From Escherichia coli (GTDB taxonomy: Bacteria > Pseudomonadota > Gammaproteobacteria > Enterobacterales > Enterobacteriaceae): 33,301 nt of DNA. Below are positions 3,001 through 9,000 of this stretch, one piece after another. The stretch lies in assembly GCF_002854065.1 (NCBI RefSeq), contig NZ_CP024149.1. One strand, 5' to 3'. Made by a program: the position numbers. Position 1 is the first letter of the stretch, and the number at the start of each line of letters is the position of its first letter.

Positions 3001-6000
3001 GGATGGAATCCTTTTGCTCTGGAGGCAACAAAACGTAACCGTATTTTTGTCAAGCAACTGATGGAGATTCTGTGTACCAGAAATGGTGAAAGATTATCGA
3101 CAAGAGAAAGATTGCTTATTAGCGAAAGTGTTGATGCTGTGATGGATTTTCCTCCTGGCGAAATGCGGGAATATGGCATTACCAGAATGCTTGAGCATCT
3201 TATGCAGAGAGATGATCGGGATGAGCAGGAGAACGGGATTATCCTTCGTTTGTCCCAATGGGCTAATGGTCAGGCTCATGGCTGGGTTTTTGATAATGCT
3301 AAAGACACATTCAATATTCAGCATGTCAATAATTTTGGCATTGATGGCACCGAGTTTCTTGATGATCCGATGGTATGTGCACCAATTACTTTCTATCTGC
3401 TGTATCGCATTACGCAGCTTCTGGACGGTCGGCGTCTTGTTATCTTCCTGGATGAGTTCTGGAAATGGCTACAGGATGAAGCATTCAGCGACTTTGTCTA
3501 TAACAAGCTGAAAACAATTCGTAAGCTGAACGGGCTGGTTATTCCGGCAACTCAGTCTCCGGATGAAATACTGAAGAATAAGATTTCACGGGCTGTGGTT
3601 GAAGTATGCAGCACCAGTATTTATCTGGCTAACCCTGATGCCGATTACAATGATTATGTGGAAGGGCTTAAGCTGACACCAGAAGAATTTAATATTGTTA
3701 AAAATCTTGATCCAATGTCGAGACAGTTCCTGATTAAAAAAAGCAGTCTTAAAAAGGGGGATGGTAAATCATTTTCAGCACTTGCGACACTCGATTTATC
3801 GGGACTTGGTGGATATCTGAAAATATTGTCTGCCAGTGCAGATAATCTGGAAATTTTTGAAAGTATTTATCATGAAGGAATGGAGCCTGATGACTGGGTT
3901 CCTGAATATCTCGAACGGGCAATCTGACAGGTGAATTTATGAAACGTGTAAAAACATTGATGCTGATATCATTATTGACGGCTTCATTTTATAGTAGCGC
4001 AGGAATTCCGGTTGCTATTGATGCCAGTCCGGAATGGGCTGTTGAAGCCGCAAGATGGACAGAACGACTCAAACAATGGTCCGAAACTGCGCAACATTAT
4101 CAGAGTCAGATTCAGGCATATAAAGACCAGTTAGCCACGGCAACAGGTATAAGGAATATTGCGGCATTCACAAATGAACTAAGTAATCTACAATCAGAAC
4201 TGACAAATATTTATAAGCAGGGGAATAGTTATATTTCTGATTTTACCAGTAATCCCGAAGGTGCATTGAGCAGCCAGGCTAAAAATCTGTTCAGCAAGTA
4301 TGGAGCCTTCGATATGTGTAATACGGGCTATGAACGTAATGATAATCTCTGTAAAGCACGGATTGTGTCAACGGCTGCCAGTATTGAACAGGGAAATGAG
4401 ATCAATAAGCAGTTATCAAGTGCAATGTCTCAGATTCAGAGTTTAAGTAGCCGAATTGAGGCTTCAAAGGATATCAAAGAATCCCAGGATTTGGCTAACG
4501 CATTACAGGCGCAGTCGTTAAAAATGCAGGCGATAAAAATGCAGTATGATGTCTGGAATAATAAAAATAAAGCAGATCATGAGATGTTGGTCACACAAGA
4601 ACAAGAGGCCTTTATTAAACAGCAGAAAGAAGCTGAACCATTAACTTTTGATTAAAAGGTGGATATATGGCTCAGGGGTTTTTCGTTAAATATAATTCTA
4701 CCGTTATGGATTCGGTAGATAAAATCAGCTCCAGTTATCAAACACAATTTGCTAATGATATTATGTCGTTAGCAACGGTATCGGTTACGTTATATGTACT
4801 ATGGAAAGGATATCAAATACTTGCCAGTAAAACTCAGACGCCCTTGCAGGATTTAGTATGGGATCTATCAAAATTTGCAATCATAATCATGTTTATAACT
4901 AATGCGGATGGGTATTTAACTGCGGCTACTGATGCGTTGCAAGGCATGAAAGATGGTTTTTCTGGAGGGGTGAGTGTCTGGCAAACTTTAGATAACTTAT
5001 GGAAAAGTACGCAAAATCTTGGTGCGGAAATATACTCTTTAGATAAATCAACATATGTTAAAGATCAAGGTGTAGTTGGTCAGTTTTTAATATGGACTGG
5101 CTCGCTTATTTTAATGGCTGTTAGTGTGGTTGTTTTTTTAACAGCAGATGTAACGATGAAACTCCTGATTATTACAGCACCGATATTTATCTTTTGTCTC
5201 ATGTTTGGTTTTATTCGGAGCATGTTTAATAATTGGTTACAATCGTTATTCTCCAGTATTCTGACAGTTCTATTTGCCAGTTTAGTGATTCGGATAGCAA
5301 TGGATTTTCAAGGGATGATCCTTTCCCATGCTATTCGTGCTGCACAAACAGGGAATGTAAATCTTGTATCTACAGGTGCTATGGGCTTTATGGCTGGGTT
5401 TTTGGGGGCTTTATTGGTTCTTATAGCTAAAGGTTTTGCTGTCCAGTTAGCAGGTGCAGGTGTTGAAGGTGCTGTTCAGGGCGCAGCCATGATGGGGCTG
5501 GGTGCTGCTGGTATGGCTACTGGTAAGTCTCTGATGCTTGGCGGTCGTGCTGGTTTAGGTTTTGGCTTAGGGATGGCCGGAAGAACGGGCATGAATTCTT
5601 TATCAGGGAAAGCAGGGAATCTGATGGGGCGTGGTGCGCGAACAGCCGCTGAATGGGCGGGTGAAAAGGGATATCAGGCGCTGGCTCCGACAGGTGCTTT
5701 GGGGATGAAGGCGAGAAGACTTGCATCCCTGGAAAAAGCACGAGCGAGGAACGCCGCATGAAAATAATGAAACGTTTTTTTTATGTGATGTCCCTGAACT
5801 GGATACTGGTGTTCGTTGATAAACATATCACCTCCGGATGGAGCAGGAAGAGAAAGCTAATAACCCAGCTTGTTATTTTAATCACGGGAATTACCTTATT
5901 TAAGGTCTTAGGTGGAATCAGTCAGAGCTGGTTGTGACATGCTTCATTATTTTGTCATGATACTTTATTTTGTCCTAATCCTTCTTTTAGGAGTGTTTAC

Positions 6001-9000
6001 CTGCTTCGCAGGAATAAGACTTGGTTTAGGGCTTGCGGGGAAATGGAGAAAGGGTATGGATCTTCGCTTTTTGCTTCTTATTGGTGGGATTCTTTTTCTT
6101 CATCTTGGCCTTTATCTCTTAAAGGTGTTCGTGAACGCTTAATAAGGTGAATTTATGCGATGTGTGATTCTTTTGTTTTTCCTGTTTCAGATTTCCGGAT
6201 GTACCACAAGGAATAACCTTCCTTCTGATGTTTCCGGCGAACTGGAACCCATTAACCACAGCCAGGTAATCAGTTATGAGTGAAAAAATCGAAAAGAAGA
6301 TTGAGACAGCTAAATCCTTCGAAAGACAACTCTATGCAGAAAATGAACGGTCTAAGAAAAATGCATGGCGTGTTGCAGTGGCAGCATCATTACTGTCCTT
6401 ATGTCTTGGGGCTGCAATTTGTGTTCTTGTGCCATTAAAAGAAAAAGAGCTTGCTATTGTGGCTGTTGGCGAAAAAACAGGCCGTACAGAACTGATTACT
6501 CAGGTTAAACAGGAAAAGATCCTGCAATCTGAAGCACTTGGGCGGTATTTTGTAAACACGTATATTACTTTACGTGAAGGTTATAATTATCCGTCTCTTC
6601 AGTATGATTATGAGACTGTACAGCTATATAGCTCGAATACAGTAAAGGACGATTATCTTCGTCTGTATAACAGCGATATGGCTCCTGATAAAATTTATCA
6701 TAATAACGGTTCTTACGTTGCGGTTGAGGTCATCTCCAATATTATTTCTGACGCAACCGCGCCAGATAAACTGGCCTCTGTGCGCTTTAAAAAAACGACG
6801 AGAAACTTCACGACCGGACAGGTTTCAGTTTCATACTGGACGGCTCGTGTGACATATCGTTTTGAACCAGAAAAGTCGGTTAAAAGTTCCAGTCGTGAGC
6901 TTAATCCTCTCGGTTTTACTGTAACCAGTTACCAGACAGATCGGGAAGTCAGGGGGGAATGATGAAGAAATTATTTATTGCTACATGTTTATTGCTTCCT
7001 GGGCTTGTGTATTCAGCAGCGACTCCGTTACCTTCTGGATTTGATGCAAGGATGCAGACTGTGAGTTATAACGGTGCGAATACGACCGTTATCCGGTCAA
7101 AGACAGGATTTCTCACATCAGTTGTTTTTGATGAAGGTGAGGCTGTTATCAGTGCAAAGGCTGGTTTTCCTGCCGGATGGGAAATCACAACCGATGATAA
7201 TGTTGTTTACATCAATCCGCGTCCCGTTGTTCAGGAACAGGAAGGCGATGAAGGCGAAAAACTGAAAAAGGTTTTCCAGCCAACAGAAAAGGAATGGGAT
7301 ACGAATCTTTTTGTCAGAACAACAAAGCGGATTTACAGTCTGGATCTAATCCTTCTGTCAGAAGAAAAACAAGCGCAACCTGCTTATGTTGTACAATTCC
7401 GCTATCCATCAGAAATAGCGAAAAAGAATGCAGAAGAAGTAAGGCTGGCAAAAGAAAAACAGGAAAAACTCAGACAGAAGAAACTGATTTCTGAAAGTTT
7501 TGAAAAAGCCGATGCGCCTAAAAACTGGAATTATTTCATGCGAGTCAATGAAAAATATGACAGTCGTCGTATCGCCCCTGATTTTGCTTATGATAATGGC
7601 ATATTTACCTTTTTAGGTTTTAACTCAGGGAAAGTATTCCCAGCTCCATTTGCTGTAAGAGATGGTCAGGAACAGACACTTGCTTTTAATGTGGAAACAA
7701 AAGGCAAGTATAAAATTATGGTTATCCACAACGTTAATGACAAATTTGTTTTACGCTATGGAAACAGCGTTGTTGGTGTTGTGAATAAATCTTTCGGAAA
7801 AGTATTAACCGACCAGAGGAATACATCTTCTCCTGCGGTAGAACGTGTTGAGGTGAATAATGACTGATATGAAAAAAACAGATGATTTAGTTGATGATGC
7901 GAATCAGTCAAAGCTGGAAAGTAAACCCGTTCATGATATCGGTGATATCAGGAACAAAAATAATCGTATGCGTTCTGGCTTTCTGTTTGGTCTGATGGCT
8001 GTATTAGTTATTGGTATTTTTGCGCTGAAAACATATAAAAATTATTTTGCAGATGACCAGCAGAAAGCATCAGAATCAACAGGCGATACCAGCATTTCTC
8101 AGGTAAGTAAAATCCGTACTGGTCTTGGTCAGAATTTTGACCCTGTTGAGAACAAAGCAATTATCAATCCAGGCGCTACTGGTTCTGGTAATACTGTTTC
8201 TGACGGTCATAAAGAAGTGCCACAGGAGGGGTTCAGGAAATATTTGTCAATACCTGTTGCTGGTCAGGGAGGGAGTCAGACTGGCGCGAGTGGCAGCAGC
8301 AGGACATCGCAGACATCAGAGCCACAGGAAGAAAGGAAAGAATCAAAAGAAAATGTGCCTGGTAAATCAGGAATGAAAGTAACTGCGATTAATCTCGATC
8401 CTGATCTCTATATTGAGGAAAACAGGCTTATACCGTGTGCTTTAACCACACGCTTTGTTTCTGATGTTGCAGGTCGTATCAGTTGTGTTTTTACAGAAGA
8501 TGTATGGAGTGCTAATCACCACACAAAATTACTGGAACAGGGAACTAAGGCTTTTGGTCGTTACCAGACCGGAACGCTGAATCATGGACAGGGCAGAATG
8601 TTCGTTATGTGGGAGCAGTTGCGGACGCCTGATAATAAACGAATCGATATGGTAAATACAGCAGCAGCTGGTCCCCTGGGAGAAGCGGGCATTGATGGAT
8701 GGATCGATTCTCACTTCTGGGAGCGTTTTGGTGGTTCTCTTATGCTCAGTATGGTTCAGGATGTAGCGGCGGCGGCGGCGGATAATGCACCTGGTAAAGA
8801 TCGTAATGTGGATTATACCGAAAACTCACGACAGGCAATGGCTGAAATGGCTAAAGTCGCACTTGAGAATTCGATAAATATTCCTCCAACAATGTATAAA
8901 AACCAGGGTGACATAATCACTATTATGGTCGGGGAAGACATTGATTTTTCTGATATCTATGAGTTAAAGGTAAAATAGTATGAGTGGCGTTATTCCTGTC

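Follow-up and report, generated by a model that had tools for sequence, protein, structure and literature searches.

The window analysed here, the whole 33,301-base stretch of DNA from Escherichia coli (NZ_CP024149.1), is an entire mcr-1-type IncX4 plasmid, essentially pHNSHP23, and we deal with the gap between its conjugation genes virB6 and virB8. This gap measures 514 nt and is tiled on the + strand by three small open reading frames (ORFs). In our joint reading, to which we give a probability of roughly 0.7, ORF3 is PilX7, the VirB7-type lipoprotein of the type IV secretion system (T4SS), ORF1 is a genuine membrane protein, and ORF2 is an IncX4-specific hydrophobic ORF that is either a young peptide or functionless. 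Three small ORFs had been placed here by an earlier inspection of the same DNA, made without database searches (hereafter the sequence-only reading), and all three are present in the following arrangement:

5758..5937, + strand: ORF1, a small membrane protein of 59 residues, recognised by the ratio of nonsynonymous to synonymous substitution rates (dN/dS), synteny and remote homologues
5939..6142, + strand: ORF2, 67 residues, a hydrophobic frame of doubtful coding status in which two transmembrane segments are predicted
6144..6150, + strand: AAGGTGA, the strong Shine-Dalgarno sequence of pilX7, kept in a diverged IncX4-like lineage represented by locus L012 (GAAGGTGAATTTATG)
6155..6283, + strand: ORF3 or pilX7, a precursor of 42 residues, recognised by its lipobox, synteny, a profile match and the published name

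Taken alone, the ORFs are only mildly unexpected: frames left open for at least 40 codons occupy 99.6% of the gap's + strand, and this coverage was reached in 1.9% of 2000 first-order Markov simulations. Scans of the three ORFs against Pfam, NCBIfam, PHROGs and PADLOC gave no significant match. It is comparative evidence, rather than open-frame statistics, that carries ORF1 and ORF3.

PilX7 and the VirB7 family

ORF3 runs from ATG 6155 to TGA 6283, and its end overlaps the virB8 start codon (6276) by 8 nt. The lipobox ISGC, also pointed out in the sequence-only reading, closes a signal peptide of the form MRCVILLFFLFQ-ISGC; the predicted lipidation site is Cys16, which would leave a mature peptide of 27 residues. 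A tblastn search with ORF3 matched about 395 non-IncX4 plasmids at 35-40% identity. At each locus that we opened (IncX1 pSE34, Yersinia pYptb32953, Pectobacterium pPA21A, an IncFIB/MPF_T plasmid, IncX7 pJARS35, an IncX7-like contig and Arsenophonus plasmids), the match was a lipoprotein ORF of 42-48 residues just upstream of virB8, usually overlapping it. The same position, between virB6 and virB8, is occupied in locus L017 and by the canonical virB7 genes of Agrobacterium, Rhizobium and Komagataeibacter.

An alignment of the PilX7 family from six systems left invariant the G-C of the lipobox, a P, an S-G pair and the motif P-[IV]-N. In PilX7 of the window this motif reads P32-I33-N34-H35; across the six homologues the P and the N never change and I or V fills position 33, and the fourth residue is not K or R. 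PilX7 proteins of IncX4 and IncX7 have divergent signal peptides but share an identical C-terminal stretch of 21 residues in the mature protein (LPSDVSGxLEPINHSQVISYE). Moreover, close pairs of pilX7 genes gave a dN/dS of 0.15-0.18. We compared the family profile by hhalign with an alignment of canonical VirB7s, built from the annotated proteins of Agrobacterium, Rhizobium, Sinorhizobium and Komagataeibacter plasmids, and obtained 92.9% probability and an E-value of 3.6e-7, with Cys placed on Cys and PIN on PLN. In BLASTP, ORF3 is 34% identical over 29 residues to VirB7 of Agrobacterium/Rhizobium.

The gene has been named pilX7 in PMC8725589, the PixR study of pHNSHP23, where its product is given 33-38% identity to other IncX PilX7 proteins, 34% to VirB7 of pTi and 65% to IncX7, and where transposon sequencing scored it as transfer-essential. 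Hence the VirB7 identity of ORF3, which the sequence-only reading had proposed independently and which our comparisons bear out, was already known from its name and reported essentiality; what is shown here, at the level of sequence, is the assignment of ORF3 to the family of VirB7-type outer-membrane lipoproteins. Its likeness to VirB7, TraN and PilX7 of Agrobacterium, pKM101 and R6K lies in the very small size, the lipobox cysteine and the overlapping gene just upstream of virB8. In addition, P-[IVL]-N stands about 16 residues past the cysteine, as does the VirB9-contact motif of VirB7 and TraN. In PMC3093366, VirB7 proteins are described as very poorly conserved save for a PVNK motif, the Val and Asn of which are the most conserved residues and contact VirB9/TraO.

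Several observations weigh against this assignment or qualify it. The mature PilX7 of 27 residues falls below the range of 30-45 that PMC3093366 gives for VirB7, and in place of PVNK it carries PINH. The generic signal peptide of lipoproteins contributes some of the hhalign score. ORF3 has no significant sequence match to the curated VirB7 models of Pfam and NCBIfam or to the solved TraN/TrwH chains; PilX7 thus stays, unlike known VirB7s, below threshold on every curated VirB7 model, the best score being 12.5 bits (from the IncX1 homologue) against a cut-off of 60. When PDB sequences were searched with PilX7-family profiles, whether or not these included the signal peptide, the outcome was generic lipoprotein signal peptides or nothing. 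Unlike Agrobacterium VirB7, PilX7 has in the alignment no second cysteine equivalent to Cys24.

For the partner of PilX7 we modelled the C-terminal domain (CTD) of VirB9, a linker and mature ORF3 as a single chain in AlphaFold2, with nine paired sequences. The VirB9 CTD was modelled as a β-sandwich that matches pKM101 TraO (2ofq, TM-score 0.83) and R388 TrwF. Its predicted local distance difference test score (pLDDT) was about 80, that of the ORF3 motif block 69 and that of the linker 32-37. The confidence of this fused-chain model is only moderate, which also counts against the reading, and the model is suggestive of PilX7 docking on the VirB9 CTD. By analogy with TraN/TraO of pKM101, PilX7 would be made as a prolipoprotein of 42 residues and lipidated at Cys16, and its sorting to the outer membrane is expected because the +2 residue is Thr. 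The mature 27 residues may then bind the C-terminal β-sandwich of VirB9 through SG…E-P-I-N, in the mode of TraN and TraO, and this binding would stabilise the outer-membrane core complex.

Two side observations concern pilX7 genes of other plasmids. The VirB7-like ORF is unannotated at 3431-3559 of L005 (IncX1 pSE34), 3001-3147 of L010 (pYptb32953), 3001-3138 of L011 (pPA21A) and 2684-2812 of L021 (IncX7 pJARS35), and the gene tables of PLSDB are incomplete. In the IncX7 plasmid p17Y0159.3 of Yersinia ruckeri (NZ_CP084646; L016, 4336-5029), virB6 is joined directly to pilX7 with no ORF1 between them, and pilX7 precedes an in-frame virB8::virB9 fusion of 188 residues that unites the VirB8 N-terminus with the VirB9 CTD. 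This plasmid is probably defective in transfer, although MOB-suite types it as 'conjugative'.

A small membrane protein tied to virB6

ORF1 extends from ATG 5758 to TGA 5937. Its start codon overlaps the virB6 stop codon as ATGA and is preceded by a GAGGA Shine-Dalgarno sequence 7 nt upstream. The sequence-only reading took it for a protein of 59 residues with a single transmembrane segment, overlapping the virB6 stop, and this description holds: hydropathy gives one clear transmembrane segment (about residues 33-55), together with a shorter hydrophobic helix at the N-terminus. In the AlphaFold2 prediction (pLDDT 73), helices at residues 2-24 and 30-58 form a hairpin.

The diverged IncX4-like lineage, which comes from three metagenome samples (L012-L014), allows a test of selection on this frame. 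Against L012, ORF1 shows 39 differences in 168 nt, distributed as 12/5/22 over the three codon positions. In the frame of ORF1 dN/dS is 0.15, and in both other frames it exceeds 1. Between two copies of the IncX7 type (pJARS35 and a metagenomic IncX7-like contig represent IncX7 here) dN/dS is 0.21, which resembles the 0.11-0.19 obtained for virB8.

A HMMER search with ORF1 of 1.84 billion representative proteins returned two true remote homologues, P0029 (9e-11) and P0031 (1e-7); two further matches, P0030 and P0032, were set aside as repetitive unrelated proteins. In the remote homologues, too, the start codon overlaps the virB6 stop codon as ATGA, and the next gene encodes a VirB7-like lipoprotein (L018, L020 and pJARS35). 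One lineage is that of IncX7, with pJARS35 from Yersinia pestis and a contig whose VirB4 is 83% identical to that of IncX4; another consists of Arsenophonus nasoniae plasmids, with VirB4 at 65% identity. Altogether the ATGA overlap and the gene order are kept in five lineages with VirB4 identities of 65-83%. Homologues were found solely in IncX4, IncX7 and Arsenophonus plasmids, and a local tblastn for homologues of ORF1 or ORF2 in the IncX1, pYptb32953, pPA21A, L017 and Y. ruckeri loci found none.

The family (57-61 residues) aligns with a conserved pattern S-[LF]-[ND]-W…T-[SK]-G-W-S-x-x-[KR]-K…Q…G…K. Helix 1 carries S-[LF]-[ND]-W and helix 2 the Q, G and K, and the turn holds T-x-G-W-S with the basic residues after it; these motifs persist down to 30% identity. 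The comparisons of sequence thus show ORF1 to be a real gene, conserved and under purifying selection.

The conserved overlap also bears on the start codon. In RefSeq, WP_227648764.1 begins ORF1 at ATG 5788 and has 49 residues. This start is probably wrong, because the codon at 5788 is Ile or Phe in relatives and a start codon in none of them, whereas the ATGA at 5758 is kept in all five lineages. ORF1 is already deposited as a hypothetical protein, under this accession for IncX4 and as WP_013572658.1 for pJARS35. In the RefSeq record of pHNSHP23 it is the sole gene annotated between virB6 and virB8, and for this reason it is most likely the cds8 of PMC8725589. According to that study cds8 lies in the single pilX transcript and is absent from the 18 transfer-essential genes. 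In the literature that we searched, no family, start-codon analysis, selection test or distribution has been described for cds8/ORF1.

Some findings speak against ORF1 as we read it. Its codon usage is atypical (log-likelihood -0.07 per codon). A natural variant on a 29.5-kb contig (P0016) has an in-frame deletion of 17 codons that includes the conserved DKHITSGWSRKRK loop. The Y. ruckeri plasmid does without ORF1, though its T4SS is damaged by the virB8::virB9 fusion. Moreover, the equation of ORF1 with cds8 is based on the RefSeq annotation and not on the gene table of the authors. We also considered ORF1 as the split-off C-terminus of a longer VirB6 and rejected this, as VirB6 of the Y. ruckeri plasmid has no extra hydrophobic tail.

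The product of ORF1 would be a helical hairpin of 57-61 residues with a T-x-G-W-S…K-K turn, co-translated with VirB6 through the ATGA overlap and apparently confined to the IncX4/IncX7/Arsenophonus branch of P-type T4SSs. From the conserved coupling to virB6 we infer that it may be a non-essential accessory partner, in the inner membrane, of VirB6 or of the inner-membrane complex.

ORF2 and the competing explanations

ORF2 runs from ATG 5939 to TAA 6142 and encodes 67 residues plus the stop; were translation to begin at the GTG at 5912 instead, the product would have 76 residues. Its ATG lies 1 nt past the ORF1 stop codon (TGAcATG) and has no recognisable Shine-Dalgarno sequence. A membrane protein of 68 residues had been announced for this place by the sequence-only reading; the location is as it said, hydropathy gives two hydrophobic segments, and its length is one too many, 68 including the stop.

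In our estimate ORF2 is about as likely as not to be a functional protein. The rival that survives best, held by us at somewhat below even odds, takes ORF2 as non-functional: its frame would be open by accident, in a spacer rich in T and quick to evolve, and maybe kept so since frameshifts would disturb ribosome traffic to the essential downstream genes. ORF2 is conserved in one lineage only, the main IncX4 lineage, and neither PLSDB nor a collection of 5.8 billion proteins yielded a homologue beyond IncX4; both facts count against a protein-coding role in our joint reading as well. Where ORF2 is missing, the distance between ORF1 and pilX7 shrinks to 9-12 nt in IncX7 and to a 4-nt overlap in Arsenophonus. 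In the L012 lineage an unalignable segment of about 156 nt (L012 1007-1162), with stop codons in every frame, replaces ORF2. The idea that L012 retains a truncated ORF2 was dropped, since BLASTP of ORF2 against the mini-ORF of L012 gave no alignment. The ORF2 region is 42% T, a composition that by itself favours 'membrane-like' translations rich in Phe, Leu and Ile, and the 1.9% of simulations noted above makes a chance tiling of the gap not very rare.

Against an accidental frame stand the codon usage, variation and integrity of ORF2. In its own frame the log-likelihood of codon usage is +0.20 per codon, near that of known genes (0.265±0.079). The TGAcATG junction with ORF1 likewise speaks for coding. 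The two indels found in nature, 18 nt and 12 nt long, preserve the frame, three of the five substitutions within IncX4 are synonymous, both replacements are conservative, and the ORF is intact in 438 of the 441 IncX4 records. In addition, coupling need not be preserved here, pilX7 having its own strong Shine-Dalgarno sequence. The 18-nt indel has an evident site:

5947-5956 and 5965-5974, + strand: 10-nt direct repeat TTATTTTGTC with an 18-nt period, at which some IncX4 sublineages carry an in-frame 18-nt deletion (alignment of L003, L006 and L007)

Another variant (P0022, 6 contigs) lost the basic KWRKG loop by an in-frame deletion.

The L012-L014 loci are mosaics when compared with positions 5650-6400 of the window, with an identity of about 83% over virB6 and ORF1 and of about 97% in the part that starts at the pilX7 ribosome-binding site. 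With 83% identity to its left and 97% to its right, ORF2 appears to lie at a recombination or hypervariable junction, and this suggests a recombination breakpoint at the ORF2 region in the L012 lineage. On our reading ORF2 is a T-rich two-helix ORF at the point where the operon varies most, and either a young, lineage-specific membrane peptide or a functionless ORF.

A more ambitious version of our reading of ORF1 can be formulated. ORF1 may be an undescribed, clade-specific accessory subunit of P-type T4SSs. In plasmids of IncX4, IncX7 and Arsenophonus it would modulate how VirB6 or the inner-membrane complex is assembled, or else the efficiency of transfer or the range of hosts. ORF2 would be a membrane peptide of recent origin, confined to IncX4, that supplements ORF1. 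We regard this as tentative, and on balance somewhat unlikely; if true, such a subunit could bear on the effective spread of mcr-1 by IncX4.

The sequence-only reading had offered ORF1 and ORF2 as candidates for entry-exclusion or pilus-associated factors of the kind often encoded at this position. In its fullest form, ORF1, ORF2 or both would be exclusion or immunity factors in the inner membrane of the recipient, beside a lipoprotein of the EexN family. Both are indeed small membrane proteins within a transfer operon, in which they resemble the EexN lipoproteins (Eex of pKM101/IncN and of IncX), small envelope proteins encoded within T4SS operons. ORF1/cds8 was not scored as essential in donors, as expected of an exclusion gene. 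Some systems have two exclusion proteins, such as TraT/TraS of F and TrbJ/TrbK of Ti, which also favours this explanation. However, the plasmid already carries a canonical EexN gene elsewhere:

32931..33146, + strand: eex, an entry-exclusion lipoprotein of the EexN family, 71 residues; NCBIfam NF033894 at 67.5 bits against a cut-off of 33
22-198, + strand: cds9, a basic protein of 58 residues and the first gene of the pilX operon

The eex product is 50.8% identical to EexN of pSE34 and is annotated in IncX4 records by the Prokaryotic Genome Annotation Pipeline (PGAP). The gene stands between pixR (32641-32934), the end of which it overlaps, and cds9, in agreement with PMC8725589, which locates the IncX4 eex upstream of pilX1. 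That study also reports that deletion of cds9 abolished transfer and could not be complemented. In the relatives whose loci we examined, eex lies between virB5 and virB6, the usual EexN slot, and never in the virB6–virB8 gap. In L020, an operon of the Arsenophonus type, that slot holds a gene for an eex-like lipoprotein (4640-4894) and ORF1 is present as well, so ORF1 is not a replacement for eex. Unlike EexN proteins, ORF1 and ORF2 have no lipobox; they resemble no exclusion family and match neither NF033894 nor any other model of NCBIfam or Pfam. The conserved ATGA coupling of ORF1 to virB6 points instead to a structural partner. With an EexN gene elsewhere and the eex of relatives between virB5 and virB6, the exclusion proposal is weakened, and we consider it improbable; as worded in the sequence-only reading, the idea of exclusion or pilus factors at this position finds no support.

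A role in translation, with the peptides themselves irrelevant, is slightly less probable still. ORF1 and ORF2 would in that case be spacers of translational coupling that ferry ribosomes from virB6 to pilX7-11. The junctions ATGA and TGAcATG, the lack of a recognisable Shine-Dalgarno sequence before ORF2 and the fact that every observed indel is in frame would suit such a spacer. However, the purifying selection on ORF1 (dN/dS 0.15-0.21) and the persistence of its motifs down to 30% identity argue for a constrained peptide, pilX7 has a strong Shine-Dalgarno sequence of its own, and in the Y. ruckeri IncX7 relative virB6 joins pilX7 directly.

It is very improbable that ORF1, ORF2 or both are membrane-toxic peptides, type I toxin- or holin-like, serving plasmid maintenance or donor physiology: both are hydrophobic and of 60-70 residues or fewer, and a gene for a DinQ-like type I toxin exists elsewhere on IncX4 plasmids, but both are sense-oriented and translationally coupled in a long operon, no antisense promoter or RNA signal was found in the gap, neither matches a toxin or defence family, and the input transposon library was reported to be even in coverage except at pir, tsxB and mcr-1 (PMC8725589). 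The DinQ-like gene, dqlB in RefSeq, encodes 31 residues at 8346-8441 of pHNSHP23 (L023) and is a further very small membrane-peptide gene on IncX4.

The gap within the pilX operon and its annotation

Over 2.4 kb around the gap, hundreds of PLSDB records of the type IncX4, MOBP and MPF_T match the window at 100% identity. Moreover, the gene set of the window is identical to that of pHNSHP23 (NZ_MF774184, 33,309 bp), which has been studied experimentally. The operon runs in the order virB5, virB6, gap, virB8, virB9, virB10, virB11 and taxB, and the genes nearest to the gap are as follows:

3939-4655: virB5
4667..5761, + strand: pilX6/virB6, 364 residues, upstream of the gap; Pfam TrbL/VirB6 at 1.7e-43, type IV secretion system protein in RefSeq
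6276..6962, + strand: pilX8/virB8, 228 residues, downstream of the gap; Pfam VirB8 at 1.7e-49
6959..7867, + strand: pilX9/virB9, annotated as a P-type VirB9, whose C-terminal domain is the expected partner of PilX7

According to PMC8725589, one transcription start site serves a single operon, cds9-pilX1-6-cds8-pilX7-11-taxB-trbM. PixR activates this operon, with cds8 induced 13-fold, and transposon sequencing gave 18 transfer-essential genes, with all 10 pilX genes among the essential ones. The virB6–virB8 gap may be seen as a densely packed part of this PixR-activated conjugation operon, in which the ORF junctions overlap or abut.

Signals other than coding frames were not evident in the gap. 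Searches for RNA families gave only Rfam noise below threshold, and a promoter and terminator scan gave a single candidate site of each kind, a yield not above that of shuffled sequence. An 11-nt perfect inverted repeat that flanks ORF1 (AAAATAATGAA at 5761-5771 and TTCATTATTTT at 5943-5953) was judged to be chance, being AT-rich and not kept in L012, and a 13-nt direct repeat in the gap was likewise ascribed to chance in AT-rich sequence.

The sequence-only reading called the three ORFs unannotated, which is true for most RefSeq records, where PGAP leaves the gap empty. It is not true elsewhere: some PGAP records call ORF1, as a hypothetical protein from ATG 5788, all three ORFs are annotated in GenBank CP035775, 789 contigs carry the ORF3 product of 42 residues under the name 'conjugal transfer protein', and the gene list of PMC8725589 reads 'pilX1-6, cds8, pilX7-11'. 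The omission by PGAP/RefSeq of a VirB7-type gene of 42-48 residues in IncX4, IncX7, IncX1 and related plasmids looks systematic.

There is thus a lesson for annotation, in that an essential VirB7-type gene is missed by PGAP/RefSeq and ORF1 is called from a non-conserved start. The recognition of ORF1 as a narrow, virB6-linked family in one branch of the P-type T4SSs is a modest new point. The understanding of the conjugation mechanism is left unchanged, and the gap is an ordinary piece of a known conjugation operon. Plasmids of the IncX4 type belong to the chief carriers of mcr-1 worldwide, so it is useful to know every component of their transfer apparatus.

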